A DNA stretch of 53,719 nucleotides from a virus. Taxonomy: Duplodnaviria > Caudoviricetes. Shown in pieces: positions 1 to 53,719 of this stretch. Position numbers and translations under genes: made by a program. The stretch spans positions 1 to 53,719 of the IMG/VR virus record IMGVR_UViG_3300025704_000035; one strand, written 5' to 3'. Within the stretch, counting starts at the first letter, position 1; each line of letters starts with the position of its first letter. The notes beneath the pieces were generated by a model that did not search any database, was not told the DNA's origin, and saw only the letters and a list, made by a program, of their open reading frames with translations.

Positions 1-367
1 GGGTCTCTTCCCAGTTCTCGTAAAACTCGAATCGGTCTGCATAATCTGAGGGCGACTCAAAGAAACCACCAACTAACGGGAGGTCTTGCTTACGGTAGTC
101 TTCGTCAGAAAGCATACGACCTGCAATATCAGTTGTCTGGCTACCAAATCGACCCAAGCCGCCAAGGAAATATTCATAAGCATATTGCATCTTATCTGGA
201 TTGATAGACATGGAACCGTCTCGGTACTTGTCACCCCCAGTAGCATCGTTGAGGAACTCAGCCGGAACAGTAAACATCTTGTCGGTTGATCTTCGAGAGT
301 TATAAGCATTGGCTCGCTCAACAAACAATGGGTTTTGCTCTATGTAGATATCACTGCCAAAGAAGTT
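1..367. repeat. Terminal direct repeat, left copy (circular overlap with 53353-53719)
   Basis: 367 bp align without gaps to the last 367 bp, with 9 substitutions. Confidence 0.97.
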
Positions 368-35424: not shown

Positions 35425-35577
35425 CAAAAATGGTGATATAGATCTACTAGTCCCCCATGGATCCACAGTATCGAACCGCCCCGATCCCAATATCCCTATC
35501 CCCCCCCCTACCTTATTATTACCTGCGATATGGCGAGGTGTTCTGGCTAACCACAACCTGATAAAGGTGTTGGTCAG

Positions 35578-36030
35578 CTAGTGTAAGTCCTTGTTTTCCT
35601 TGAAGATATCCTCATCAAACTCTTCTTCAACAGCTTCTTCTAGGTCTAAATCAGCTAAAAACGCCCCATGAAAGCTTGTAACCTCCTGCTTTTCTGGCGC
35701 AAATCCGCCTACCACCTTAATCAGCAGTTCTAATGCCCTAACACGGGTTCCTGACTGATCTGCCTCCATGCTTTCACTTTCAAGCTGACTCACGTAACGA
35801 GCCAACCTATCCTCACCATCACTCATGATTTGTCTCCTTTCAGCCTCTATAGCCGCCTTTACACTAATATTATCTAACAGACGGAATGCCTGCACATTTG
35901 GGTGAGCGTAGCCTGCAAGGTGTGCTGATCTGGTTGCATTACCTGTTGCTACGTACTCTGTGACGAATCGAAGCTGTCTCATGTTCAGGGCTTTGTTATC
36001 CCTTACTGGTGCATTGCTCTCTACTGTCAT
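35578..36030 (-). CDS. terS: Terminase small subunit
   Basis: RQLRFVTEY...GNATRSA..AGY HTH motif; RALELL. Confidence 0.85.
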   Translation of the reverse strand: MTVESNAPVRDNKALNMRQLRFVTEYVATGNATRSAHLAGYAHPNVQAFRLLDNISVKAAIEAERRQIMSDGEDRLARYVSQLESESMEADQSGTRVRALELLIKVVGGFAPEKQEVTSFHGAFLADLDLEEAVEEEFDEDIFKENKDLH

Positions 36031-36086
36031 TGTTTACTTCTCCCTATGGGAATATGGACGTGGGGGGTTTTGGTTTTTTCCCCGCC

Positions 36087-36371
36087 CTAGAAAAAATTCT
36101 TAACTACTGCGCTCAGTCCTACTGAGAATGCTACCCAGAACATCCTCTCACTGATGCGGCTCTTACTCTCTGTCTCGATTATCGATTTCTCGATCTCACG
36201 CTGATTCGACTCTAAGGTATCAAGCCTGCGTTCGTGGCGGTCTGTTCTTTTATGGCTACTGATCATCCGCTCATCTAAGCGTTTAAGTTCTGACAATGTC
36301 TTGGTGACTTCATCTAACTTTGACTCTAGGCGATCAAATCTGGTGTCTATGTTCAAAGTATCTGCGCTCAT
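36087..36371 (-). CDS. Coiled-coil protein with C-terminal membrane anchor (holin/XhlA-like)
   Basis: RFDRLESKLD heptads; C-terminal hydrophobic helix; start at MSADTL. Confidence 0.5.
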   Translation of the reverse strand: MSADTLNIDTRFDRLESKLDEVTKTLSELKRLDERMISSHKRTDRHERRLDTLESNQREIEKSIIETESKSRISERMFWVAFSVGLSAVVKNFF

Positions 36372-36466
36372 TTGTAAGTGGTTGGTTTCATTAAGAAATA
36401 TGTCTGTAAGTATATCTTTTAATCTATACAGACACAAAATAATTTCAATTAATTATAAAATATATC

Positions 36467-36496
36467 TTGACAGATTATTTTCTGCACCTGTATATT
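36467..36496 (+). promoter_or_regulatory. Sigma70-type promoter of the rightward operon
   Basis: TTGACA (36467-72), 18-bp spacer, TATATT (36491-96); AT-rich UP-like region upstream. Confidence 0.7.
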
Positions 36497-36499
36497 AGT

Positions 36500-36826
36500 T
36501 GGCAAGTGCTCAAACGGCACTTCGGATACGAGGTCTCCGACATGACCTGCCACCTTCGGGTGAACACGAAAGCTTCGGCGAGTAGTGGTCTTCAAAGCAC
36601 AGCGGTTGGGTGCGAGTCGGGACAGAGCCCCTGCCGCTCTTCAAAGGTGCACGGTTGGAGATAGTGAAAGCCAGAATGAGTTCTGAGCGAGTAGCGAGCC
36701 TCCTGCAAGGAACGCAATCAAACGACCGACTGGGTGGGCTACCTACCTAGGAAAGCTACGGCGAGTACGACCCAGTCGAGTTGATTTGATAGAGCCGCCA
36801 CGTTGGAGGTTCTACAAAATCAATTC
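36500..36826 (+). ncRNA. Candidate structured leader RNA, family unknown
   Basis: GC-rich, no convincing CDS; UUCG/UACG tetraloops; three GAAAGC..GCGAGUA modules; 9-bp stem 36727-35/36770-78; long hairpin 36778-36826. Confidence 0.65.
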
Positions 36827-36845
36827 TTACCCTGAGGAGGGCACC

Positions 36846-37019
36846 ATGGATATTCAAGTAGAAATAAAAAGCATTTACGGTCAAGAAAAGATCTACCCAC
36901 TATGCCTAGCAGGCGAGACATTCGCTCAGATAGCAGGCACCAAAACATTAACCACTGAGACTATCGCACTGGCTAAGCGCCTAGGCTATCAATTCATTAT
37001 TAAACAACGGGGGATCTGA
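36846..37019 (+). CDS. Small hypothetical protein
   Basis: MDIQVEIKSIYGQEKIYP..., directly after CCTGAGGAGG. Confidence 0.75.
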   Translation: MDIQVEIKSIYGQEKIYPLCLAGETFAQIAGTKTLTTETIALAKRLGYQFIIKQRGI

Positions 37020-37021
37020 TC

Positions 37022-37252
37022 ATGACTACACATAAAGAACGAGCGTTTAAGTTAGCGGATGAGATAGACGCACTGCATAGCAAACTAGAAGAGCATGTTG
37101 AAGATTTACGGCTCGAATGGGCAGACGATAAATTCGATGACGAGTACCCAATCTGGGACTCAGAAGATGCTCAATGCTACTTAGAGAAGGCGGTTGACTT
37201 AATCAAGCGCTACTACACGAACGAATCATTATTTAGGCGGCAGATCCCCTGA
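37022..37252 (+). CDS. Small acidic hypothetical protein
   Basis: 76-aa ORF with GGGGG SD-like sequence. Confidence 0.65.
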   Translation: MTTHKERAFKLADEIDALHSKLEEHVEDLRLEWADDKFDDEYPIWDSEDAQCYLEKAVDLIKRYYTNESLFRRQIP

Positions 37253-37271
37253 AAAGGGAAGCCTAAGCATA

Positions 37272-37332
37272 CTCAACTGATGAGGCTAGCGGGGGTTAGC
37301 CGAAACAGCCCTTCGGGGTTGTCTTGAGACCC
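37272..37332 (+). ncRNA. Type I hammerhead ribozyme HH1 (predicted cleavage after C37323, GUC)
   Basis: Stem I CUCAA/UUGAG; CUGAUGA; stem II GGCUAGC/GUUAGCC; GAAA; stem III CAGCCC-UUCG-GGGUUG; G-rich loop II can pair with 3' CCC. Confidence 0.93.
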
Positions 37333-37361
37333 ATATAATTAATCCTGAGGAGGATAACAAC

Positions 37362-38240
37362 ATGGCTAAATTTGAAGATATTTTTCAAGAAGTTACAGAC
37401 CGAATCATTGATGGTTTGGAAAATGCTGATGACTGGCGCAAGCCTTGGAAATCACTGTTCGATGGTTCAGTACCGCATAACGCATCTACTGGCAGACCAT
37501 ATAGCGGTGTGAATTTCCTTAACCTATCGTGGGCATCCAAGAAATGGGGTGCTTCTGGTTGGGTTACCTACAAGCAGGCGCAAGCCCTTGGCGGTAAGGT
37601 TCCCAGTAAAAGCGCATCAAACGGGGGCTGTGAGTATGTTTGGTTCATGGCTCGCAGTGTCTATAAAGATAAGCAGACTGGTGACGATAAAGTCGGCTTT
37701 ATAAACAAATGCTTCTCAGTCTGGAATGTTAACCAGATCGAATGGGAAGAAGGCAGTAAACCTTACAGAGAATACACCCCACCAGTATCTGGTACGGGTG
37801 CAGTCAATGTACTGGCTGAGAGCCTAGATATTGATCTGCAATATCAGGGTGATGTTGCATGCTTCATCCCTTCAGTAGATGTTATCAAGATGCCTTCTGC
37901 TGAGGCGTTCAAAACCCCTGAAGACCATGACGCCACACTGGCTCATGAGTTAGTGCACTGGACTGGTCATAAAGACCGACTCAACAGAAAGATCCTGAAC
38001 AGCAAGGGTGGTGAAGATTACGCCTTTGAGGAACTGGTCGCTGAGTTGGGTGCGGCTTTTGCAGGCTCCCTACTAGGTATTCCCTACGAGGGGCTACAGC
38101 ATGAGAAGTACATCAAGAGTTGGCTTAAGGCGTTAAAGAATGATCCTAAACATATCGTAAAGGCATCTGCTCAAGCGTCCAAAGCTGTTAACTATCTTAA
38201 TGATAACGGCTCCCTACAGATTGTAGACATAGCCGCATAG
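37362..38240 (+). CDS. ardC: ArdC-like antirestriction protein (ssDNA-binding domain plus zincin metallopeptidase)
   Basis: W.KPW, N..TGRPYSGVN, W.TYKQA..LGG, HELVHWTGH..RL.R, YAFEELVAELGAAF, YI.SWL..L. Confidence 0.9.
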   Translation: MAKFEDIFQEVTDRIIDGLENADDWRKPWKSLFDGSVPHNASTGRPYSGVNFLNLSWASKKWGASGWVTYKQAQALGGKVPSKSASNGGCEYVWFMARSVYKDKQTGDDKVGFINKCFSVWNVNQIEWEEGSKPYREYTPPVSGTGAVNVLAESLDIDLQYQGDVACFIPSVDVIKMPSAEAFKTPEDHDATLAHELVHWTGHKDRLNRKILNSKGGEDYAFEELVAELGAAFAGSLLGIPYEGLQHEKYIKSWLKALKNDPKHIVKASAQASKAVNYLNDNGSLQIVDIAA

Positions 38241-38241
38241 G

Positions 38242-38279
38242 TTGGGGGGTGTTGGGTTTTTCCCGCGCCCCAATTTTTT
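38242..38279 (+). terminator. Possible weak terminator hairpin after ardC
   Basis: TTGGGG...CCCCAA imperfect stem followed by a T run. Confidence 0.4.
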
Positions 38280-38295
38280 ACCTGAGGAGGTAATC

Positions 38296-38451
38296 ATGAC
38301 TGAAGATCAACTGATACAAAACGTTAAAAACGTAATCCTTGAGTGGGCGTTCGAGGAGATCGAAGAAAACCCTGACAGCGACATTACCTTGGAGGATCGG
38401 TACTGCCAGAACAGGGATTCAATACTTGACGTCCTGAAAGAAAAGCTCTAG
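38296..38451 (+). CDS. Small acidic hypothetical protein
   Basis: ATG after CCTGAGGAGG; stop TAG is part of HH2 stem I. Confidence 0.7.
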   Translation: MTEDQLIQNVKNVILEWAFEEIEENPDSDITLEDRYCQNRDSILDVLKEKL

Positions 38452-38511
38452 CTGATGAGTACTGGGTAGTGCCCAGTCGAAACACTGGTTCGCCAGTGTC
38501 CTAGATAACTA
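38447..38511 (+). ncRNA. Type I hammerhead ribozyme HH2 (cleavage after C38500, GUC)
   Basis: Stem I UCUAG/CUAGA; CUGAUGA; stem II G(U)ACUGGG/CCCAGUC; GAAA; stem III CACUGG-UUCG-CCAGUG; loop UAGU pairs with 3' ACUA. Confidence 0.93.
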
Positions 38512-38530
38512 ATCCTGAGGAGGATCTATC

Positions 38531-38938
38531 ATGGCTACATTGCAACAGAAAAACATCCACCCTGCACTGTCCCTGACTTGGGATTTATTGACAGACCCTG
38601 TGATCAACCCTACACGCAAAGCGAGACTGCGTCAGGATGCACGGCGCTATCAATACAGCGACCGCCTAGCTACTCGCATTGAACTCAATCAACACATTGA
38701 GTACTGCAAGACCGCAGACGGTTTTATTTATATCGAGAACTTCTCTCGAGACTGTGACAACTGCGAACGTACATGGGTAGAGAAGATACCCGCTCACATC
38801 ACAGCCCTCACGGTACACGAGAACCGACTGCAAAAAAACGCAGAGGGGATCACCTACTGCTCCCTGATCACTAAAGCGCAAGCAAACAAATTCAAACCCT
38901 CATTTCGTGATCGTAACGCAGAGCGTGGCTGGTACTAA
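38531..38938 (+). CDS. Hypothetical protein with CxxC
   Basis: 135 aa; SD hairpin upstream. Confidence 0.75.
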   Translation: MATLQQKNIHPALSLTWDLLTDPVINPTRKARLRQDARRYQYSDRLATRIELNQHIEYCKTADGFIYIENFSRDCDNCERTWVEKIPAHITALTVHENRLQKNAEGITYCSLITKAQANKFKPSFRDRNAERGWY

Positions 38939-38949
38939 CTTTATACTAA

Positions 38950-39012
38950 TCCAACTGATGAGACTAGATAGTTACTGGTCGAAACACCCCCTGTGGGTGT
39001 CTTGGAAAACTA
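38950..39012 (+). ncRNA. Type I hammerhead ribozyme HH3 (cleavage after C39001, GUC)
   Basis: Stem I UCCAA/UUGGA; CUGAUGA; stem II GACUAG/CUGGUC; GAAA; stem III CACCC/GGGUG; loop UAGUU pairs with 3' AACUA. Confidence 0.93.
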
Positions 39013-39034
39013 ATAAGACCTGAGGAGGTTAATC

Positions 39035-39577
39035 ATGAGCAATTCCAAATTTCACTTAGATAAAAATGCAATCCATTTGCTTAAAGAGTGCAACGAGTTG
39101 GCATGGCGTATGTCTGGTCGGGTCGAAGAACTTTTTAACGACTTGCATGGCACGTCAGTACCCCGCTCTGTTAGAGATGAGATTGAGATTCTTGAGCAGT
39201 ACCTAAACAAGGTAATCAATCAGACCACAGAAGCCCTAGACGCTGATCGTGAGATTGACGGTGAGTGTGTCCATGCTTACTGCCCTAACCCAACCAACAT
39301 AGAAGCCTATGGCTTAAAGGTTGAGAGGTATCTGCCCAGTAACTGGGAGGTATCAGATATAACACCTGACACTGTTTATATTCGTGGTCATAACACCTGC
39401 CGCACTGATGGAGAGCGTGAGTTCGAGCACTACTTACAGCCACGGCTAACGTCAGGCTTGATTCACTCTGTGCTTGCAACCGCTGAAGAAGTAGCGAAGC
39501 GTGCCCAAGGTGAGCGAGACAATCTTGAGGATGGGTGGGTTCAAACAAACGACATAAGGCACCAGTTACCGTGTTAA
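39035..39577 (+). CDS. Hypothetical protein
   Basis: 180 aa; SD hairpin upstream; bracketed by HH3 and HH4. Confidence 0.75.
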   Translation: MSNSKFHLDKNAIHLLKECNELAWRMSGRVEELFNDLHGTSVPRSVRDEIEILEQYLNKVINQTTEALDADREIDGECVHAYCPNPTNIEAYGLKVERYLPSNWEVSDITPDTVYIRGHNTCRTDGEREFEHYLQPRLTSGLIHSVLATAEEVAKRAQGERDNLEDGWVQTNDIRHQLPC

Positions 39578-39578
39578 A

Positions 39579-39640
39579 TCCAACTGATGATCGCAGTTAG
39601 TTACTGCGTGAAACACCCTTCGGGGTGTATTGGAAAACTA
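39579..39640 (+). ncRNA. Type I hammerhead ribozyme HH4 (cleavage after A39629, GUA)
   Basis: Stem I UCCAA/UUGGA; CUGAUGA; stem II CGCAGU/ACUGCG with U-U at the base; GAAA; stem III CACCC-UUCG-GGGUG; loop UAGUU pairs with 3' AACUA. Confidence 0.88.
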
Positions 39641-39658
39641 AACCTGAGGAGGTTGTAT

Positions 39659-39946
39659 ATGTATTTCATAACTAAACTAAACGGCGATCGAGTGCCCAGT
39701 CGATATGGTCTGGTGCATTACGTGAGTCTGTCCAGACTGTGTGACTATAGCTACCCTAACGTTAAGGATGGCATAAGCTATCTGGTATATAAGAGTGAAT
39801 TAGATCGCAGTGATGGCAAAGCCCATGGCGTCTATGTTACTGAGGGCGGAAAGTTGGTGCGCGATAAACGCAGATCAGCATTACGCAAAATACACGATCT
39901 ATTCAGGGGGCGCAGTATCGATGAAATTACCTACGCCCCACTTTGA
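39659..39946 (+). CDS. Hypothetical protein
   Basis: Start at MYFITKL after CCTGAGGAGG; the track's longer start lies inside HH4. Confidence 0.72.
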   Translation: MYFITKLNGDRVPSRYGLVHYVSLSRLCDYSYPNVKDGISYLVYKSELDRSDGKAHGVYVTEGGKLVRDKRRSALRKIHDLFRGRSIDEITYAPL

Positions 39947-40136
39947 CATTAACACTATGCTTCACCGCAAGGTGCGGTATGTCCTACAGAAACCTGACGC
40001 CCTGCATGATGCCCTGCTACAAATTGTAACTTTGGGCAAATCGGATTGGGATCAGCAAGAGTGGGACGCACTGGTTGCCGATATCGAATCATCCGACCTT
40101 ACAGTTGGTGAATACATCAAGCCCTACAGAACCTGA
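39921..40136 (+). CDS. Hypothetical protein
   Basis: MKLPTPHF...; stop TGA lies inside the next CCTGAGGAGG. Confidence 0.6.
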   Translation: MKLPTPHFDINTMLHRKVRYVLQKPDALHDALLQIVTLGKSDWDQQEWDALVADIESSDLTVGEYIKPYRT

Positions 40137-40147
40137 GGAGGTTAACC

Positions 40148-40390
40148 ATGGCTTATTACATTAGCAAGCTAGACCCTATAGATGGATCAGTATCACCGTT
40201 CGCTAGAGTAGTCAAACGATTATGTGATGCAAAACATCTAGCTGACGATGAGGTGTGTGCGGTATTCAAAAACCGCAGAGACTTCTCTGAAAAGTGGATC
40301 TACAAAACCTATGTGTCGCAGAACGGTAAACTTAAACCCGTGACAAGACATGACATCCCGAAACAAATCGGAAATCTGTTTTCTCTCTAG
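40148..40390 (+). CDS. Hypothetical protein
   Basis: 80 aa; stop TAG is part of HH5 stem I. Confidence 0.72.
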   Translation: MAYYISKLDPIDGSVSPFARVVKRLCDAKHLADDEVCAVFKNRRDFSEKWIYKTYVSQNGKLKPVTRHDIPKQIGNLFSL

Positions 40391-40445
40391 CTGATGAGCA
40401 CTGGATGGTTACCAGTCGAAACGCCGTGAGGCGTCCTAGAAAACC
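40386..40445 (+). ncRNA. Type I hammerhead ribozyme HH5 (cleavage after C40435, GUC)
   Basis: Stem I UCUAG/CUAGA; CUGAUGA; stem II G(C)ACUGG/CCAGUC; GAAA; stem III CGCC-GUGA-GGCG; loop GGUU pairs with 3' AACC. Confidence 0.93.
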
Positions 40446-40487
40446 GTTACAATTGCGTGTATATTAATTTCCTGAGGAGGATACATT

Positions 40488-40793
40488 ATGAAACAAGCAC
40501 ACTTACACCTTATTCAATGGGGTTTAGATCAGGGCTACATCATCGAGGTAGACATCGAGGGTGAGGCTGAGTATCGAGGCAAAAGCTACAAAGAAGCAAA
40601 AGATGCTAGCGAAGCGGGTGAGACAGGCTGTATATACCTAATTACTGGCACGGGTGATACAGATTATGCGTGGTTTGGATATCTTCACGACTACGACCAG
40701 AAGCCCGATGAAAAGATTTACGACTATGGCATTTGTGCCGTATCTGAATCGTGGCAGAAAGCCTACGACCAACACTGCTCTCAAGCCGCATAA
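40488..40793 (+). CDS. Hypothetical protein
   Basis: 101 aa; SD hairpin upstream. Confidence 0.75.
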   Translation: MKQAHLHLIQWGLDQGYIIEVDIEGEAEYRGKSYKEAKDASEAGETGCIYLITGTGDTDYAWFGYLHDYDQKPDEKIYDYGICAVSESWQKAYDQHCSQAA

Positions 40794-40820
40794 CCACCCC
40801 CACAATAAGTAACCACCATA

Positions 40821-40843
40821 AAGCCACCTTCGGGTGGTTTTTT
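40821..40843 (+). terminator. Intrinsic terminator
   Basis: AAGCCACC-TTCG-GGTGGTTT followed by a T run. Confidence 0.8.
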
Positions 40844-40888
40844 AGTGCTTATTTAATTATCAAAAACCAATATCCTGAGGAGGATTTT

Positions 40889-41224
40889 ATGAGTTTATAT
40901 TTAGTAAAAAGTGAAGTACGCGATGGTGGTTATGAATACCATGACAAGTTTATCCTGCTAGCAAGTAGCGGCGGAATATCGCTCGAACTACCTCAAAACA
41001 TCAATGCAATTTTGACGGCATGGGAGTTTGGGTTGACTGTCAAACATGTTGAAGAGTCAGGTGATGAGGTTTGGGCTGACTGTCGGCTGGTTTATTGCAA
41101 CACCTGCGGAACCATATCAAATGAAAACTACAACGTCATTAAAGAATACCTGAACGTGATTAATCTTGAGTACATTTTAGGTGATGTCGAATATGGCGAT
41201 GAGCGTGATCAGGAGGTGGCGTAA
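40889..41224 (+). CDS. Hypothetical protein
   Basis: Start MSLYLVK after CCTGAGGAGG. Confidence 0.72.
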   Translation: MSLYLVKSEVRDGGYEYHDKFILLASSGGISLELPQNINAILTAWEFGLTVKHVEESGDEVWADCRLVYCNTCGTISNENYNVIKEYLNVINLEYILGDVEYGDERDQEVA

Positions 41225-41391
41225 TGGATAACCCATTTGCAGATATCGCCCAGTGGGAGCGCTACTGGGATATGAGCGACCTTGAACGTGTCCGTGAGGA
41301 TGAGCAGGAGCAGAAAAAGAAAGAAGCGACCGAGCAAAAATGGGCTAATCGCTTTAAGTTAGGTATTCAAGACGAATGCGAACAATACTAG
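41224..41391 (+). CDS. 55-aa hypothetical protein (below the ORF-track cutoff)
   Basis: MDNPFADIAQWERYWDMSDL...; TAATG coupling and AGGAGG SD. Confidence 0.65.
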   Translation: MDNPFADIAQWERYWDMSDLERVREDEQEQKKKEATEQKWANRFKLGIQDECEQY

Positions 41392-41399
41392 GAGGTGCT

Positions 41400-41588
41400 A
41401 TGCCTATATATCAAGTAACAACTAAAGAGGTCTGCCTTAACACCTATGAGGTGGCGGCTAGATCCAAGGAAGATGCTATCAGCTCTTATTATGAGCAGTT
41501 GAACTCGCGTCAAATAAAAAGCGTTAGCAGTGATGAGAGTGTTATTTCAACACTTGAAGTATTTCCAACTGATGAGTTGTCGAGGTAG
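41400..41588 (+). CDS. Small hypothetical protein; last codons overlap HH6
   Basis: MPIYQVTTKE... with AGGAGG SD; PTDELSR* is encoded by the hammerhead core. Confidence 0.65.
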   Translation: MPIYQVTTKEVCLNTYEVAARSKEDAISSYYEQLNSRQIKSVSSDESVISTLEVFPTDELSR

Positions 41589-41662
41589 TCCCTCGATCGA
41601 AAGTCTAAGTACACAATAGGTAATCTTTTTTACCCTTTGTGTATTTGACTCTTGGATAACTA
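41564..41662 (+). ncRNA. Type I hammerhead ribozyme HH6 with extended stem III (cleavage after C41651, CUC)
   Basis: Stem I UCCAA/UUGGA; CUGAUGA; stem II GUCGAGG/CCUCGAU; GAAA; stem III GUC/GAC plus AAGUACACAA/UUGUGUAUUU plus GGUAA/UUACC; loop UAGU pairs with 3' ACUA. Confidence 0.85.
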
Positions 41663-41682
41663 AAAAACCTGAGGAGGTTTAT

Positions 41683-42135
41683 ATGTCTAACAATAATGTT
41701 TATTTAAGAAGTAAAAAGGTTAAAAGAATTGGCGGGAAGGATATTGTTTTGTTCTCTCATGCCTACAATCATGAGGTATCTGTCTTAGCTAAAGAGAAGT
41801 ACTACGGCAGTGAATCGCATTATGACCGAGTGGTAAATCAGCGTGAAAATAAAGCTATGAAATACTGCGAAACACAGAAAGATATAGGGTATATGGTTCT
41901 GTGTGACAACTGGACTAGTATTGGGTTGCATTACGATTTATCAAAACCATGCTTAAACCCAGTTTATATAATAGAGCCTCATGACTACTACATTCGCGAG
42001 GGCACTCAACTTCCACCTATTGCAGGCTTTGTTTCCCGTAGTGGTTATCAGTACCGTTTTATAGCTTTTGAAGATGCCTGTGAACCTTGGAAGCAAAAAT
42101 ACCCAGAGCAGATTAAAAGAAATGCTTTCACCTAA
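41683..42135 (+). CDS. Hypothetical protein
   Basis: 150 aa; SD hairpin upstream. Confidence 0.75.
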   Translation: MSNNNVYLRSKKVKRIGGKDIVLFSHAYNHEVSVLAKEKYYGSESHYDRVVNQRENKAMKYCETQKDIGYMVLCDNWTSIGLHYDLSKPCLNPVYIIEPHDYYIREGTQLPPIAGFVSRSGYQYRFIAFEDACEPWKQKYPEQIKRNAFT

Positions 42136-42258
42136 TACTAAAGTATTAGTACCTAATGGCTATGTATTAATGAATCATTTGTACGTATATTCTTCACCCA
42201 AAGGAATTGGCACTCTTTCGACATGGATGTTCTCTTAATTTCATTTAAAGGAAATAGG

Positions 42259-42642
42259 ATGAACCTTAATGACAGTAAAATTGAAAAAGACCCTCGATAT
42301 CTAGTCGCGGTTGCTTTGTTACGACTAGCAAAAACGTCAAAACAAAAAAAGGTATTAAGAAAAATGCTCAAGCAACATCAGGGCTTTGACTTTCTTGCAT
42401 ATAAGCAACACATCAAAAAAGAGATAGATGAAAAAAGCGCGGGCGGTAAAATAATTGTTCACGCATGGAGCCTTGAAGATACATTGCAGGGCTGTCCCTC
42501 AACCAAAAAACTGCCAGCAACAGTAGTTGCTTATTTAAGATTTGCTAGATCAGCTAAAGGCAAGTCTGTAATTATTAACCCCCCGTCTTTGACAGTTCGT
42601 CAAACGACTTTTACAGAGACTAATCTTCAAAGCGTAGTATAA
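42259..42642 (+). CDS. Hypothetical basic protein
   Basis: Start at MNLNDSK (AAGGA SD). Confidence 0.6.
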   Translation: MNLNDSKIEKDPRYLVAVALLRLAKTSKQKKVLRKMLKQHQGFDFLAYKQHIKKEIDEKSAGGKIIVHAWSLEDTLQGCPSTKKLPATVVAYLRFARSAKGKSVIINPPSLTVRQTTFTETNLQSVV

Positions 42643-42736
42643 AGGTGACGGCTCACCTGAGGAGGGTATAGGCACAGGGAATACAGTGCCGAGCCGCCGC
42701 CCCTATCATAACCCTACAGTACCCACGGAGTAAAGA

Positions 42737-42916
42737 ATGCAAAGGTATGAATGCCTTTGCTGTCAATTTGCGGGTGATCGTGATGAATTCATAATCGAAG
42801 AATGCGTGGATCTGGAGCCTTACGGCGATCGGAGCGTCCCGCGCACATCCTACACTTTTAACTGCCCTAAATGCGACAGCGATAACGTTGACGAAGAATG
42901 GCGTGCGCCATTTTAA
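42737..42916 (+). CDS. 59-aa Zn-ribbon protein (below the ORF-track cutoff)
   Basis: MQRYECLCCQF...FNCPKCDSDNV; GGAG SD. Confidence 0.7.
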   Translation: MQRYECLCCQFAGDRDEFIIEECVDLEPYGDRSVPRTSYTFNCPKCDSDNVDEEWRAPF

Positions 42917-42937
42917 AAAACAATACAGGAGGTGCAT

Positions 42938-43291
42938 ATGCACTTATATAAAAAAATGCTCGAAGTTAGTAATATTCCCGAAACAAGATCCTTACCATTA
43001 GCAGAAGCCCTAAAAAGTTTGCATTCTGCTATCTGTGCTTTAGACCAAGAGAACAGAGTGCGCTTCGGGTTCATTAACCCAGAAGCAGTTGAAGCCGCAA
43101 TAAGCTACGCCTTAACGGAAGACCTCAATGCTGAACTTTGGGGCTCTGACGAAAAGGTTTCCGTCATGATGGATAATCAATCTATTAGTGATAGTTTCTA
43201 TATTGAATTTACGCCTGACTGTTTCGATGAAGAGGGTAAATCAGAAAAAGAAGGAGCGGTAATTAACATGGAGGACTACAGGAAAGAATGA
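42938..43291 (+). CDS. Hypothetical acidic protein
   Basis: AGGAGG SD before the ATG. Confidence 0.65.
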   Translation: MHLYKKMLEVSNIPETRSLPLAEALKSLHSAICALDQENRVRFGFINPEAVEAAISYALTEDLNAELWGSDEKVSVMMDNQSISDSFYIEFTPDCFDEEGKSEKEGAVINMEDYRKE

Positions 43292-43488
43292 AAACAAATG
43301 ATCAGCTAATAAATTTAGCCAAGGAATCAGGGTTAACTATCAAAGAGATATCCGAACTGATAGAGACCCCTTATGGAACTGTAAAAAACTGGACTCGAGG
43401 AAAGGAATCCCCAAGCTATAGAGAAATGCCTAGGCACGCACTCATTGCCGCTCGATACTGTATCGAAGCAAAGCTTGCCGAGGAATAA
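43288..43488 (+). CDS. Small HTH DNA-binding protein (Cro/XRE-like)
   Basis: GLTIKEISELIETPYGTVKNWTRG helix-turn-helix. Confidence 0.75.
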   Translation: MKTNDQLINLAKESGLTIKEISELIETPYGTVKNWTRGKESPSYREMPRHALIAARYCIEAKLAEE

Positions 43489-43864
43489 GAAATACCCACT
43501 TTGGATACCTGTCCGTAGTACCAGTAATGCGGACGGGCTCCAACCCTTCAACTAGAATACACTCCAGTATTCCCTCTCGCGTAAACCAATACTCCCCATC
43601 CCCTAAATCAAAGAACCAAAAGTCAGCTTCAGATACAGAAAATGCACTAGGTTTTCTATGGAAATACTCCACAACAACATTGCCAGTCTTAATTGACATA
43701 GGGTCGTATTTAACCTCTATGGTTTGATTGATCTCAGGCACCCTTATATCCCACTCGGGATGATTGCCGATCGCTCTTACAGAACTGGGGAATGTCGTTT
43801 TTAGGCGTTCTAGCAACCCTTCCTCGACCCTTCCACCTCTCTTTAAATCTTCCTTAAATCCCAC
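43442..43864 (-). CDS. PD-(D/E)XK nuclease-like protein
   Basis: WDI..IEVKYD..TGNV.VEY..PS....ADFW. Confidence 0.7.
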   Translation of the reverse strand: MGFKEDLKRGGRVEEGLLERLKTTFPSSVRAIGNHPEWDIRVPEINQTIEVKYDPMSIKTGNVVVEYFHRKPSAFSVSEADFWFFDLGDGEYWFTREGILECILVEGLEPVRITGTTDRYPKWVFLIPRQALLRYSIERQ

Positions 43865-44153
43865 GCTTCTTCCACATAGCTTTTACTCCGTTTTCTACAA
43901 GCTGTCTTGTATGTTTAGGAACTGCATCTTGCGGTATTGATTGTATTGCATTGCGCCTTTCTTCTTTGGTACTTAAGTCAAGTATCTGGCTTGGAAGATA
44001 ATAAGGGAGCGTTGATAGTGCCAAGTCATGAAACTCTGGCTTCATAGCGCCCCTTATATATTCAACGCATTGGGGGTAATATATTTTTCCCGCCGCAATT
44101 TCTACGGTCTTACGTAGCTGTGTTGGATTCAATAGGAACCTCCAGCAAGTCAC
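43854..44153 (-). CDS. Hypothetical protein
   Basis: ORF in operon context; start uncertain. Confidence 0.5.
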   Translation of the reverse strand: MTCWRFLLNPTQLRKTVEIAAGKIYYPQCVEYIRGAMKPEFHDLALSTLPYYLPSQILDLSTKEERRNAIQSIPQDAVPKHTRQLVENGVKAMWKKRGI

Positions 44154-44532
44154 GCATGATCATGATGCCAGTGCTAAAGTCGGTGGTGATGGTTTGCATG
44201 CCGTTCATGGCGATGTATTGACCCTCAGCTATAGCCTTTAAAGGAAACACCATTCGCGCCGGCTGATAGTCATACTTGTAAATAAGAATCGGAACATACT
44301 CCTCTTTTGCAGAGACACATGCCTGATCCCACCAATCATCTTTATGCCAACTTCCTTTAGCGTATCGCTTGGCTTCAATCATTAAATTATGAAAGACAAT
44401 GTCTCCATGACCCTTGTCTTGATACTGCTCTAGGTTGCGCTTCAAATGATCTGCACATGACCCGAACTCATCCCTAAATATTCGAATCAAATCCCTTTCA
44501 AACGCATGTCCCTTTGCTCGACCATTAATCAT
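44110..44532 (-). CDS. Holliday-junction-resolvase-like PD-(D/E)XK nuclease
   Basis: NGRAKG..FER, GDI, IEAKR, WW.QA, P.LIYK. Confidence 0.75.
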   Translation of the reverse strand: MINGRAKGHAFERDLIRIFRDEFGSCADHLKRNLEQYQDKGHGDIVFHNLMIEAKRYAKGSWHKDDWWDQACVSAKEEYVPILIYKYDYQPARMVFPLKAIAEGQYIAMNGMQTITTDFSTGIMIMRDLLEVPIESNTAT

Positions 44533-44890
44533 CTAATGTTTCCACTAACCACTGAAGATACACGGCGGCTTTTTCAAGTGACTGCCTCGCACCATTCGGG
44601 TGTACCTCATATCTCCAAACATACTTCTGGATGTTACCTTTCAGGTATCCCCTAAACTGCTCAAGTTCCATTGAGCTTTTAATCGCTTGTATGCACTCAA
44701 TTGAATCAGGTGTTTTTTTATAGTGCTGTGGCTGATTTACCGCATCCCATTGTTCTGGGGTCACGTCATCAATGCTTTTCTGCTCTTGAGCGGACGAACT
44801 GAAGAAGCTCATGCTCCGTGCCATACCTTCTTTCGAATGCCCGTTTGAACGGGTGCCTGCTTGTGTAGATTTCATTGTCTTCACCTCCAC
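44525..44890 (-). CDS. DUF3310-domain protein
   Basis: D.VN.P.HY..IECI.AI..GY.KGN..KY.WR..SLEKA..YL; true start probably downstream of the track start. Confidence 0.8.
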   Translation of the reverse strand: MEVKTMKSTQAGTRSNGHSKEGMARSMSFFSSSAQEQKSIDDVTPEQWDAVNQPQHYKKTPDSIECIQAIKSSMELEQFRGYLKGNIQKYVWRYEVHPNGARQSLEKAAVYLQWLVETLDD

Positions 44891-45071
44891 GGTGATGTTT
44901 GTAACATAGTGGTAGGGTTTTTAGGTGCGCTTCAGGCTTGGTCTTACCATCAATATGATGTACCTCGGCGGGACTAAACACCCCGTGATATTTCTTGCAC
45001 ACACAGCATCCAAGCTGTGTTATTAAATTCATCCATGCCTTCTCTTCCGTGTTGGGTGCTCTACCCTTCAA
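44769..45071 (-). CDS. Ref-like HNH nuclease (recombination enhancement family)
   Basis: LGCCVC..AEVHH...LPLC..HH..FE.RYGTE.ELL. Confidence 0.8.
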   Translation of the reverse strand: MKGRAPNTEEKAWMNLITQLGCCVCKKYHGVFSPAEVHHIDGKTKPEAHLKTLPLCYKHHRGGEDNEIYTSRHPFKRAFERRYGTEHELLQFVRSRAEKH

Positions 45072-45073
45072 CT

Positions 45074-45409
45074 TTATGCCCCGTAAACGCGGCGTTCTGC
45101 TCGCTCAGACGCTAGCTTTGACTGCCAAGCCTTGAACTCAACCTCAGCCGCCATCAGGTCAGCCTTGGCTGAAGCTAAAGCACCTTTTGCCATACCTTTT
45201 TCAAGGCGTGCGGTAAAAACGTTTTCATCTTCATCCGCAAATCTCTCTTGCCCTGCATTAGTCTTAGTCCCTCTAGCCTCTGCCTGAACCTTGCACTGAG
45301 CAATCAATTTTTTTTCTTCAGCTTCTGATCTTGCCACCTGAATCTCGGCTTTCTGTAGCTGAATACCTGCGACTCTAATCGCCTCTGCAAATCGTTCTAT
45401 ATCTTCCAT
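45074..45409 (-). CDS. Helical hypothetical protein
   Basis: 111 aa coiled coil. Confidence 0.6.
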   Translation of the reverse strand: MEDIERFAEAIRVAGIQLQKAEIQVARSEAEEKKLIAQCKVQAEARGTKTNAGQERFADEDENVFTARLEKGMAKGALASAKADLMAAEVEFKAWQSKLASERAERRVYGA

Positions 45410-45412
45410 TTG

Positions 45413-47242
45413 TTAATCCTTTGAATAGTTAATGTAATATCTTGGTCTGCCGCCTCTTCTGTCTTTGTATTGACAGGTTTCGTTATCAAACTCAAAGCCA
45501 ACACGACCCTCATACATACCGTTTCTGTTTTTCAGTATTTCTAAGTAGGTGTCCCATTGCTTTGTGTACTTTTCGTCTGGCTCTTCACCTAGCATCTCTG
45601 CCTGCTCAATTGCCTCAGACTTTCTTTTGTTCTTCCACACAGAGATAAACCCATCAGCTAAATCTGTGATTGAGCCTGAGCCCTTAACATCATATTTATT
45701 TGGAGCGGAATACTCCGACTCGCCCTTTCGAACGTGAGTAACAATAAAAATTGTGACGGGAAACGAAAGCTTAAAGTTGACTAGCTTTTCAATGAATCTT
45801 TGCTGACCTTCATAATCATCCTGCCTAACCATATTTGTTAAGCTATCAACGATAAAAACATTAATGCCATAACGCCTGTACGCATACTCAAAGCACGCCA
45901 TTAAATCTTCTGGTTTGGGGGTGAGCTTATCCACGAATAGCCATAAGTTCGGAGCCATCCATTCAAGAAGTTTTGACCTGTATGGCTTTGGAGGGTTAGC
46001 TGACCCTGCCGACTGACGTAACATTCGACCCATGGTAGCCTTGGGGGTCATCTCCATTGATGCAATTAAAACCTTCTGATCCTGCTCTACAGCATTGAGC
46101 GCCAACTGATTAAGCCACATAGATTTACCATGCCCATTGATACCTGCAACACCCCACAACTCCTGAGGTCTAAACCTAATATCCTCTTCATCTAGCTTTG
46201 CCCAACCGCTACCGAATCCCTGCTCGTCATTGGCACGGTTATCAAAAAAGTCATCTATGTCTGTTTCAAAATCAAGGACTGCTCGAAGGGTTTCAGGATC
46301 TTTCCATCTTGCCTCTTCATAAGCGCAATTGAGCATCCATTTAGCCTGCTCGTATCCTTCTTTCTTTAACAGATCATTAATATCTTTTGTTGGCAGAGTG
46401 ACCCGATAGCATCGGTCACCAAACCTGTTCATGATTTCTTCTGCGGCTAGCTCACCCTGCTCATCCATATCAGTGGCAATTATTATTTCTTCGAATCGGG
46501 AAAGGTTTTCATATTCATGAGCAATCCACTTGGTTTGCTTAGCGCCCTTACCGCCTCCCATTGGCACACTTAAAGCTGGATAGCCCAACTCCGAACAAGC
46601 TATAGCATCCCACTCACCTTCGGTAATCCATACTTTGCGGCAATCTGCGGGCATTGTTTGCCAGCCAAAAAGTATAGGTTTTAGATCTTTTTGCGTGCTT
46701 GGGTTTCCATCGTGATCGACTGGCTTGGTTTTAAGAAATACCTCTTTGCCGCTGGGGTCGTAATAATTAAATACAACATCCTTACCTCCACGACCGTCTG
46801 TCTCATATATCTTGTGGCGGAAACATATCTCCCCTACATCTTTGAAGCCTCTCTGCTCCATATGTTTATGCAAGGCTTCTCCGCTTACTTGTGGTGGTGG
46901 CTTTGGTTTGGTGTAATTCTTTTTTTCCGCCGTTGCTATTTTTTTTGCGGGACTTCTATCCCTTATGGCGTATGTTTTTTTAGCCCAATCCATCGCTTCA
47001 GTGAGCGAGTAGCCATTACGATACTGTATAAGGTCGAGTAGATCCCCGCCCTCTCCAGTAGCAAAGTCCATCCACTTTCCTGATTGATCACCTGTAAGAT
47101 AGATAGACATAGACCTACCCTTCTCACCCTGTATAGAGCCTACCTTGTAACAGCCTGACTCCATCTTTCCCTCTGGATATAACTCGTGGCACACCGATGC
47201 GGCGTGACTAGCGAGCTCACTACTTAAATCTTTAACATTCAT
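45413..47242 (-). CDS. Primase-helicase (TOPRIM plus SF4 helicase, T7 gp4/Twinkle-like)
   Basis: ITEGEWDA, DMDEQG, KDINDLL; Walker A GINGHGKS; VDSL; VTHVRK; KGSG.I.DLAD; KNRNG. Confidence 0.92.
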   Translation of the reverse strand: MNVKDLSSELASHAASVCHELYPEGKMESGCYKVGSIQGEKGRSMSIYLTGDQSGKWMDFATGEGGDLLDLIQYRNGYSLTEAMDWAKKTYAIRDRSPAKKIATAEKKNYTKPKPPPQVSGEALHKHMEQRGFKDVGEICFRHKIYETDGRGGKDVVFNYYDPSGKEVFLKTKPVDHDGNPSTQKDLKPILFGWQTMPADCRKVWITEGEWDAIACSELGYPALSVPMGGGKGAKQTKWIAHEYENLSRFEEIIIATDMDEQGELAAEEIMNRFGDRCYRVTLPTKDINDLLKKEGYEQAKWMLNCAYEEARWKDPETLRAVLDFETDIDDFFDNRANDEQGFGSGWAKLDEEDIRFRPQELWGVAGINGHGKSMWLNQLALNAVEQDQKVLIASMEMTPKATMGRMLRQSAGSANPPKPYRSKLLEWMAPNLWLFVDKLTPKPEDLMACFEYAYRRYGINVFIVDSLTNMVRQDDYEGQQRFIEKLVNFKLSFPVTIFIVTHVRKGESEYSAPNKYDVKGSGSITDLADGFISVWKNKRKSEAIEQAEMLGEEPDEKYTKQWDTYLEILKNRNGMYEGRVGFEFDNETCQYKDRRGGRPRYYINYSKD

Positions 47243-53050: not shown

Positions 53051-53719
53051 CTACTTCCCCTCAGCCTTTCGGTATGCCTTGTTAAAGATATCAAAGATCT
53101 TGTTTTCATTAACTTCAAGCTCTTCAAGTAACTTTCTTCTTTTCTCCTCTCCTAATGAGCCGGCACCGTAGTTCTGTTTCTCAACCATTTTTCTTGTTTT
53201 AGAGATCCTTCTAAGGTCTCTGTTTGCCAGCTCGTAAAGATTCTTACCGTTATACTTGGGGTTAAGTAGCGGGATGAAATCTTTAAACTCTGTCTGAAGT
53301 CTAGCCACTTCCGTCACGTCTGTAGCTTCTTTAAATCTAGTTACAATTTTACGGGTCTCTTCCCAGTTCTCGTAAAACTCGAATCGGTCTGCATAATCTG
53401 AGGGCGACTCAAAGAAACCACCAACTAACGGGAGGTCTTGCTTACGGTAGTCTTCATCCGAAAGCATACGACCTGCAATATCAGTTGTCTGGCTACCAAA
53501 TCGACCCAAGCCGCCAAGGAAATACTCATAAGCATATTGCATCTTATCTGGATTGATAGATATGGATCCATCTCGGTACTTATCACCCCCAGTAGCATCG
53601 TTGAGGAACTCAGCCGGAACAGTAAACATCTTGTCGGTTGATCTTCGAGAGTTATAAGCATTGGCTCGGTCAACAAACAACGGGTTTTGCTCTATGTAGA
53701 TATCACTGCCAAAGAAGTT
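53051..53719 (-). CDS. C-terminal part of the giant polyvalent protein (continues from 1-8932)
   Basis: Same frame as 1-8932 through the terminal overlap; stop at 53051. Confidence 0.88.
   Translation of the reverse strand, partial: NFFGSDIYIEQNPLFVDRANAYNSRRSTDKMFTVPAEFLNDATGGDKYRDGSISINPDKMQYAYEYFLGGLGRFGSQTTDIAGRMLSDEDYRKQDLPLVGGFFESPSDYADRFEFYENWEETRKIVTRFKEATDVTEVARLQTEFKDFIPLLNPKYNGKNLYELANRDLRRISKTRKMVEKQNYGAGSLGEEKRRKLLEELEVNENKIFDIFNKAYRKAEGK
53353..53719. repeat. Terminal direct repeat, right copy
   Basis: Matches 1-367 with 9 substitutions. Confidence 0.97.

Follow-up and report, generated by a model that had tools for sequence, protein, structure and literature searches.

A probable family of modular structured RNAs at the head of the immediate-early operon of uncultured, mostly marine phages

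Background

Perreault et al. (2011) describe clusters of hammerhead ribozymes in prophage operons, where they flank genes such as ardA, an anti-restriction gene (PMC3088659). In phage HK022, the antiterminator RNA putL/putR, ~70 nt long, is described just downstream of the early promoter PL, with two copies per genome (PMC9378689). Large structured antiterminator RNAs, conAn2 and EAR, are described as letting polymerase pass several terminators in a long mobile-element operon (PMC8191782). The element considered here is an RNA leader at positions 36504–36845 of a stretch of 53,719 bases (the window), which is the complete IMG/VR record IMGVR_UViG_3300025704_000035 of an uncultured phage.

Long, highly conserved folded RNAs without a known job are rare, and such RNAs have repeatedly opened new biology. 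The order of elements at this locus – promoter, leader RNA, long hairpin, first ribosome site – is that of the phage lambda pL N-leader (with nutL and an RNase III hairpin) and of T7 R0.3, and T7 likewise has an anti-restriction gene (0.3) among its first genes. The leader differs from these in having no boxA/boxB and no N protein, and in that its relatives use a ribozyme in place of the hairpin. It resembles the sponge RNAs CsrB and RsmZ in that a small motif is repeated in hairpins and varies in copy number between relatives, but that motif is a GGA loop, whereas here it is an internal GAAA/GAGUA loop in an RNA encoded by a phage.

The systems named at the outset can be compared feature by feature. 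As in the operons of PMC3088659, an anti-restriction gene is present, hammerheads stand before most genes, and a hammerhead ends the leader in short relatives; unlike them, the leader itself is no hammerhead, and the anti-restriction gene is ArdC-like, not ArdA. As in the account of HK022 put (PMC9378689), an RNA with two 5' stem-loops follows the early promoter of a temperate phage, with terminators downstream. In this comparison, which covers position and hairpin layout alone, the leader differs in being 200–530 nt long, single-copy and equipped with loop-E hairpins. The RNAs in the account of PMC8191782 differ in coming from Gram-positive plasmids or Bacilli, and conAn2 needs the ConAn1 protein for long range.

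The leader and its limits

The stretch 36504–36845 very probably forms the first unit ('gene 0'), itself non-coding, of an immediate-early operon that the host sigma-70 polymerase transcribes, and belongs to a so far uncatalogued family of modular structured RNAs from a clade of uncultured phages that are mostly marine and carry an integrase. An earlier examination of the letters, called here the sequence-only reading, had placed a G+C-rich leader of about 280 nt at the predicted transcription start. Its composition (G+C 0.57 in 36500–36799, versus 0.30–0.49 in the flanks) and its start were borne out; its length comes to about 340 nt, reaching the ribosome site at 36834–36840.

The leader follows an early promoter of the sigma-70 type, TTGACA-18-TATATT (36467–36496, + strand), which has 11 of 12 consensus matches and is the best promoter-like site within 35500–46000. 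The predicted start, ~36503–36504, is at the foot of the first hairpin (H0), and across the family it falls 0–4 nt ahead of H0. In 28 of the 30 distinct leaders compared, there is an exact TTGACA, with a –10-like hexamer whose end is 23–29 nt before the conserved block described below.

Three modules of the form GAAAGC...GCGAGUA had been reported in the leader, and all three are where they were placed (36565–36587, 36664–36695 and 36750–36768). All three occurrences of the pattern GAAAGC-N4-20-GCGAGTA in the window are in the leader and on the + strand, while shuffled sequences average 0.04 occurrences and none of 100 reaches three. Folding energy by itself gives no significant signal (z = –1.40 on the + strand, where 10 of 100 shuffles did as well; z = –1.10 on the – strand). 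The evidence for structure is the covariation seen among relatives.

The proposal of a new non-coding RNA held up against Rfam: the leader is non-coding, strand-specific, conserved and structured, and falls in no Rfam family. Rfam 15 gave no matches over the whole window at gathering score. At E values up to 10, the region 36300–36950 matched only TtnuCD18 (19.2 bits, cut-off 55) and mir-1420 (18 bits, cut-off 70), both on the – strand. There were no blastn matches of the leader to cultured phages or to plasmids, and no description of the leader RNA was found in the literature. The account of Fremin et al. (2023) has thousands of unnamed RNA candidates from IMG/VR, and the leader motif may be among them (PMC10690425).

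Covariation and conserved structure

Covariation among the collected homologues, which had been suggested as a check, supports four elements. In the alignments used, the rows are related and the structures were derived from the same sequences, and with that qualification the hairpins H0 and P2 (alignment A3, 25 distinct rows) were 94.9% paired versus 76.1% after shuffling, with none of 500 shuffles as good and slid controls at 22–41%. The long hairpin near the end of the leader (A4, 18 rows) was 97.3% paired versus 81.0% (0 of 500 as good; slid controls 33–50%), with changes on both sides in 11 of its 21 pairs. The three-way junction (A5, 15 rows, leaving out three loci with a simplified junction, L158, L165 and L224) was 96.5% paired versus 80.8% (0 of 500; slid controls 27–37%), with both-side changes in 9 of 14 pairs.

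G-U pairs are frequent on the + strand, reaching 17 of 18 rows at one pair of the long hairpin. These would be A-C mismatches on the other strand, so the sense strand is the folded one. A conserved open reading frame (ORF) had been named among the findings that would speak against an RNA; no frame stays open across the leader. The lengths of the leaders fall in all three mod-3 classes and, together with a 34-nt indel, this rules out a conserved reading frame.

The 5' unit begins with H0 (36504–36522, +; AAGUGC...GCACUU), which is 90.8% paired in the 25 rows of A3, with both sides changing in 6 of 7 pairs. Next come the invariant block CGGAUACG and the hairpin P2 (together 36523–36548, +; A3), in which AGGUC (36531–36535) pairs with GACCU (36544–36548) around the loop UCCGACAU. 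The five base pairs of P2 are 100% paired, and the two that vary are solely A-U or G-C (14/11 and 9/16 of the 25 rows). The search pattern admitted any purine-pyrimidine combination at these positions, and A-C mismatches and G-U wobbles, though possible, are absent. A CGG/CCG pseudoknot is possible at the invariant block, whose columns never vary. A guanidine-II-like ACGR loop within CGGWUACGR was considered and rejected: it competes with the perfectly covarying P2, and it has no Rfam matches.

The hairpin CACC-UUCG-GGUG, seen earlier, is present at 36551–36562 (+); relatives have CACCC-UUCG-GGGUG, with an inserted pair, or AACCC-GAGA-GGGUU. The central domain (36588–36663, +; alignments A1 and A2) contains two copies of UCUUCAAAG (36589–36597 and 36638–36646), the repeat that the sequence-only reading had pointed out, as well as a hairpin of AGAGC (36624–36628) with GCUCU (36636–36640); it is also where 34 nt have been deleted, after 36609. 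The pairing of this hairpin survives a C-G to A-U double change in L101 (RNAalifold). A segment found in class A leaders only, CCUCCUGCAAGG (36699–36711, +), is complementary to the ribosome site CCUGAGGAGG, like an anti-Shine-Dalgarno sequence.

A boxA consensus is CGCUCUUA-like and single-stranded. The boxA-like CGCUCUUCAAA that had been reported at 36635–36645 is present as a sequence, but its reading as the boxA of a lambda nut site fails, as it is paired and not conserved: CGCUCUU at 36635–36641 is the 3' arm of the AGAGC/GCUCU hairpin, and other classes read GCGGGUUCAAGG there. No lambda-type boxB was seen among the hairpins of the leader, which have UUCG, UACG and similar loops, not a GNRA-like pentaloop.

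Module 1 (36565–36587, +) reads CAC-GAAA-GC-UUCG-GC-GAGUA-GUG, with relatives such as CC-GAAA-GCC-CAA-GGC-GAGUA-GG. Module 2 (36664–36695, +) reads GU-GAAA-GC-[CAGAA-UGAG-UUCUG]-A-GC-GAGUA-GC, and its apical stem has changed from A-U to C-G in L101 and L102. Module 3 (36750–36768, +), gGAAAgc-UACG-gcGAGUAc, lies within the three-way junction, and its closing pair is C-G in 7 rows and G-C in 5. The GAAA/GAGUA loops are invariant while the flanking helices change: the outer helices include CAC/GUG, CC/GG and GU/GC, and the apical loops include UUCG, UACG, UGAG, CAA, UUA and UCCG. Short relatives have a single module, homologous to module 2 and seated on a covarying helix. The number of modules with the exact consensus ranges from none to four per leader, with one in the short classes, three in the window and four in its closest relatives; a number that varies between leaders is expected for repeated binding sites.

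We take the signature of the bulged-G (loop E or sarcin-ricin) motif to be an internal loop of 5'-AGUA-3' opposite 5'-GAA-3', flanked by Watson-Crick helices. By their letters, the GAAA/GAGUA loops conform to this signature, as the sequence-only reading had noted; a three-dimensional loop E fold is a prediction from that signature. By eye, the orientation of the modules relative to the hairpin tip is the reverse of that in the ribosomal sarcin-ricin loop, which makes it unlikely that they mimic that loop directly. A K-turn was also rejected, since the GAAA and GAGUA strands do not fit the order of a bulge followed by G-A pairs (judged by eye, from the general rules).

The leader family

At least 43 loci with at least 30 distinct leaders were identified in pattern scans of viral and marine metagenome contigs, each with the conserved block and a downstream ribosome site. 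The distinct leaders span 274–603 nt, counting 70 nt of upstream sequence. They have a common order: H0; the invariant CGGWUACG; P2; a variable middle of plain and loop-E-type hairpins; the 3' unit; and CCUGAGGAGG with a start codon. There is one leader copy per genome, and a model of the 5' core (R1) finds a single copy in the window, at 60.6 bits.

Of 34 loci found via the ArdC-like protein, 4 have a recognisable leader (identity 100, 89, 83 and 83%). In one relative, L102, the promoter region has strongly diverged while the leader is more than 90% identical. The closest relatives (L100–L102, L184) have 34 extra bases after window position 36609 that form a fourth GAAA/GAGUA module, which indicates that the window leader carries a 34-nt deletion, with loss of that module. 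Far more diverged leaders, in L103 and L109, share the block CGGWUACGRRGUCUCCG-N4-5-GACYYGC. Scans with the block gave 7 and 8 viral stretches (one, L137, a chance match in a coding region) and at least 117 metagenome stretches; a full-block filter on the two large scans left at least 29 loci, all metagenomic. The same scan of genome contigs gave at least 120 stretches, mostly Streptomyces, and none of the matches listed had the full block; they thus offer neither a lead to the host nor a prophage copy. An initial scan for two modules 55–85 nt apart was discarded: its 97 stretches were about the number estimated by chance, a single one of them was related (L054, which is the phage of L099), and the spacing used missed module 2.

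Seven leaders (L104–L108, L110 and L112), called class F, are shorter and keep the promoter, H0 and a type III hammerhead around an unrelated middle of 100 nt. The R1 5' core was absent from five class F records, four of them at least 94% complete. Other leaders are hybrids: L158 and L165 join a 5' unit of the class D type to a 3' unit with the long hairpin. Judged by the class F and hybrid leaders, the frame (promoter, terminal hairpin, processing unit, ribosome site) is constant, with exchangeable cargo in the middle. The class F leader also holds a conserved stretch of its own, AUCCGACCYAGAGG...GUGAAGCGGCAAGACCCA.

The 3' end of the leader

In the window, the 3' unit (~36714–36826) consists of a AAUCAAAC segment, a three-way junction and a long hairpin. 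The junction (36727–36778, +; alignment A5) has an outer stem of 36727–36734 with 36771–36778, a hairpin at 36735–36749 with the 7-nt loop CUACCUA, and module 3. The outer stem had been described as a 9-bp closing stem, and this was not upheld: there are 8 covarying pairs. The long hairpin (36778–36826, +; A4) is irregular, with 10 and 11 pairs around a 2x2 internal loop, and stops 7 nt short of the ribosome site. Each locus has a single copy, always in this place. The duplex of 21 pairs covaries and is a candidate RNase III site; RNase III processing hairpins of the lambda N-leader and T7 type are irregular duplexes of about two helical turns that lie between leader and ribosome site. Two further pairings were rejected: a switch pairing of the AAUCAAAC segment with the 5' arm of the long hairpin, for which the registers differ between classes, and a pairing of the YWACCUR loop with AGGU segments, which by eye is not kept across classes.

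In the short classes D and E, a type III hammerhead fills the stretch from the last module to the ribosome site. It matches Rfam Hammerhead_3 end-to-end at 29.6 bits (E 1.7e-4 in a search of 371 bases), below the cut-off of 48.5, and has a complete core of GUC, CUGAUGAG and CGAAAC. Eight distinct type III hammerheads were found in 21 loci, all with an intact core and less than 40 nt from the ribosome site. Their stems change in a compensatory manner: stem I from GCAUC/GAUGC to GCGAC/GUCGC and GCGUC/GGCGC, stem II from GGGC/GCCC to GAUC/GAUC, and stem III from AGUG/CACU to AGUA/UACU. Such changes at the end of the leader indicate that its separation from the message is under selection. The 175 nt upstream of the hammerhead cut stay conserved, and the hybrids L158 and L165 show the hammerhead and long-hairpin 3' units to be interchangeable. 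The earlier suggestion of release by downstream processing is thus supported in relatives by the type III hammerhead between leader and first ribosome site; for the window itself, processing is suggested by the long hairpin.

Hammerheads, terminators and transcripts of the operon

The early operon behind the leader has an ArdC-like gene 0.5–2.4 kb downstream in all 14 loci with at least 2 kb of downstream sequence; 10 of these 14 had been found by the RNA pattern and not via ArdC. Across the 14 loci the leader persists while the first ORF comes from at least 8 different families, which argues that the leader is independent of the first gene.

Six candidate type I hammerheads are present in the window, each 7–35 nt ahead of a CCUGAGGAGG ribosome site. 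One lies just before the ArdC-like gene (37272–37328, +) and has a complete core (CUGAUGA, GAAA, GUC) and three stems; the other five are at 38447–38505, 38950–39006, 39579–39634, 40386–40440 and 41564–41656 (+). All six fall short of the Rfam gathering cut-off, so a gathering-score scan misses them, as standard annotation would; with Hammerhead_1, whose cut-off is 34 bits, two of the six reach 23.8 and 20.6 bits. A stricter script identified 37 distinct type-I-like hammerheads in 44 oriented loci, with a ribosome site within 60 nt after 36 of them, and recovered four of the six window candidates. A type I hammerhead at the Rfam gathering score (35.5 bits) is found at 1478–1535 (–) of L158, 2.4 kb downstream of the leader there and in the same direction.

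As the sequence-only reading had predicted (at 40821), there is an intrinsic terminator inside the long operon. It has the form CCACC-UUCG-GGUGG-U6 (40824–40843, +) and lies directly against the next ribosome site. Between 40465 and 42428 no promoter-like site was reported on the + strand. A terminator-like G+C-rich hairpin with U6, identified by eye and with RNAfold, lies right after the ArdC-like gene (38242–38279, +) and also abuts the next ribosome site. Terminators on the sense strand are found inside the operon in 9 of 11 loci examined. In L138, L136, L179 and L158 a cassette CCAC(C/U)UACG(G/A)GUGG-U6 stands ~30–40 nt before the ArdC-like gene, and L134 has the same cassette twice, at +883 and +1144. 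A near-identical cassette, CCACC-UWCG-GGUGG-U6-AGU, is reused at differing places in related phages. The five loci with the cassette also have a conserved non-coding stretch ~90 nt before the terminator, …CAGUGUCCGGCACUGGGGUG.GGGA…UCCCGCCCC…, which looks like two hairpins. This stretch had no gathering-score matches to Rfam in the four of the five loci that were scanned (all except L134).

Five metatranscriptome runs share words with 36300–37400, and contigs were placed for four of these. In three of the four, from three studies, the contigs lie wholly inside the leader: 169 nt at 36640–36808 (X19), 192 nt at 36522–36713 (X20) and 184 nt at 36531–36714 (X21). The fourth is a contig of 242 nt with 217 nt on 37021–37237, in the second ORF (X18). 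The X20 and X21 contigs end at 36713/14, the border of the 5' and 3' units, a weak hint of a boundary there.

Possible functions of the leader

The leader is read here, tentatively and with a probability of roughly one in three, as a stand-alone, processed, protein-binding RNA, a scaffold or trap that works via its repeated loop-E hairpins. Such an RNA would act in its own right, not as a control of the first gene. It would be made first after infection, from a near-consensus promoter, and its terminal hairpin would protect it. Processing at the 3' unit would separate it from the message, by the type III hammerhead in short relatives and in the window by cleavage of the 21-pair hairpin, presumably by the host RNase III. 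The repeated loop-E hairpins would then be putative sites at which a protein is held or sequestered; candidate targets are a defence protein and host factors of transcription or translation.

Several observations weigh against a protein-binding role. The precedents for hairpin cleavage, the lambda N leader and T7 R0.3, are analogies only, and we know of no precedent for an early-leader RNA that serves as a decoy. The window leader (36497–36845) has no hammerhead core (CUGANGA...GAAA), the first core-like site in the window being at 37277. One metatranscriptome contig crosses 36713, the ends of the others may be assembly breaks, and the contigs may stem from contaminating DNA. Class F phages have ArdC-like proteins 71–74% identical yet lack the CGG block and the modules, so the elaborate 5' unit is dispensable for the operon, and in L185 module 1 is altered into a near-regular helix. 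Near-identity look-ups also favour the leader, which is more conserved than its flanks.

A close rival to the protein-binding RNA is a processive antitermination element like lambda nut or HK022 put, the latter a V-shaped RNA of two stems that binds the zinc-binding domain of beta' and suppresses termination. The nascent leader, with or without the help of host factors, would bind the host polymerase during elongation, and the polymerase would then read through terminators in the operon; this too is a tentative reading. It would account for the position of the leader directly after the early promoter, whichever gene comes first. There are terminators to be read through on the sense strand in 9 of the 11 loci. 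The window has 40824–40843 and the hairpin with U6 at 38242–38279, with no promoter-like site before the next ribosome site, and in L138, L136, L179 and L158 a terminator precedes the otherwise universal ArdC-like gene. The conAn2 RNA is described as an antiterminator of 260–600 bp (PMC8191782), and put as working untethered (PMC9378689), which makes the hammerhead cut compatible with antitermination, so that the hammerhead does not decide between the two readings. On the other hand, two class F loci, L104 and L110, keep the terminator before the ArdC-like gene though they have neither the CGG block nor the modules. What looks like a boxA is paired within a covarying helix and not conserved; no GNRA-type boxB hairpin, arginine-rich N-like protein or universal small ORF was seen, and there is a single leader copy per genome. 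Terminators with 5-bp stems may also simply leak.

It is unlikely that the leader is an ordinary 5' untranslated region serving the translation of the first ORF, with a terminal hairpin that stabilises the message and a CCUCCU that masks the ribosome site until the long hairpin is cut or opened. There is a hairpin at the transcript start, the layout is like that of the lambda N leader and T7 gene 0.3, and RNAalifold pairs 36699–36711 with 36830–36841 in all four class A sequences aligned; but the masking segment is found in class A alone, in invariant columns with no covariation, and the first ORF differs between classes. In the hammerhead classes the conserved 5' unit is cut off the message, and so cannot act on translation afterwards. 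Compatible with a protein-binding leader, and rather improbable, is that the 3' unit is an undescribed self-cleaving ribozyme cutting at its own 5' border. It occupies the exact slot of the type III hammerhead of relatives, in an operon full of hammerheads, has many conserved nucleotides at its junctions and loops, and contigs from two studies stop at 36713/14. Yet no known ribozyme model matches at E values up to 10, and the junction is much simplified in L158, L165 and L224. Contig ends carry little weight, one contig runs across the site, and cleavage of the hairpin by a host nuclease would account for the slot just as well. That the stretch is not an RNA at all, and is instead a small protein gene or a DNA site (replication origin, packaging site, iterons), is very improbable. 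It does adjoin the small terminase gene, and ORFs of 41–65 codons can be drawn across it, but this reading is largely refuted by the 34-nt indel and the lengths in all mod-3 classes, by compensatory changes and G-U pairs frequent on one strand only, and by the consensus promoter that precedes it in 28 of 30 members.

The odds are against the leader representing a hitherto undescribed class of phage RNA, large, modular and acting as a catalyst or in a machine-like way, in which the 5' unit would be a fourth RNA-only antiterminator or a loop-E protein trap, or the 3' unit an undescribed ribozyme. The leader is the first product of this marine phage group, ahead of their anti-restriction gene, and its natural variants (none to four exact modules; a 3' end with either hammerhead or hairpin) are a ready-made mutational series. 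Should it modify RNA polymerase, it would form a new class beside the three RNA antiterminators named in PMC8191782; should it trap a host protein, it would be an RNA-based tool of host takeover or counter-defence; and should its 3' unit cut itself, that unit would be a new ribozyme. A modest reading still extends the 2011 finding, as given in PMC3088659, that ribozymes cut phage messages into single genes.

Gene neighbourhood and other observations

To the left of the leader, on the – strand, are genes for the small terminase (35578–36030; PF03592, 2.5e-10), the large terminase, the portal and the major head protein. To its right, on the + strand, is a row of small genes, the first with a ribosome site GAGGAGG at 36834–36840 and an ATG at 36846 (57 aa; 36834–36848, +). 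There were no Pfam or PHROG matches to the first two ORFs after the leader. The third gene (37362–38240) encodes the ArdC-like anti-restriction protein, identified by profile matches to PF18818 (4.1e-38), PF08401 (2.8e-19) and phrog_7245 (1.5e-58). A ribosome-site cassette, CTGAGGAG, has 11 copies on the + strand between 36832 and 42657, and the rest of the window has one on each strand. Other genes of the phage include an integrase, Sak/RecE-type recombination genes and a primase-helicase. The closest relatives among cultured phages have at most 38% identity in the large terminase and at most 39% in the ArdC-like protein.

A protein of at least 2977 aa with an LPD38 'large polyvalent protein' domain is encoded at 2–8932 (–) and extends beyond the start of the window. 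A second open piece with the same LPD38 domain (53051–53719, –) enters from the other end. With two such pieces at opposite ends, the record is probably a permuted circle and the LPD38 protein longer still.

Three unrelated viral contigs from the first pattern scan (L008, L032 and L094) have in common a G+C-rich, non-coding-looking stretch, GAAAGC...GCGAGUAGAGUAGG...GAUAUAGUC...CGAAAGC, which may be another structured RNA.

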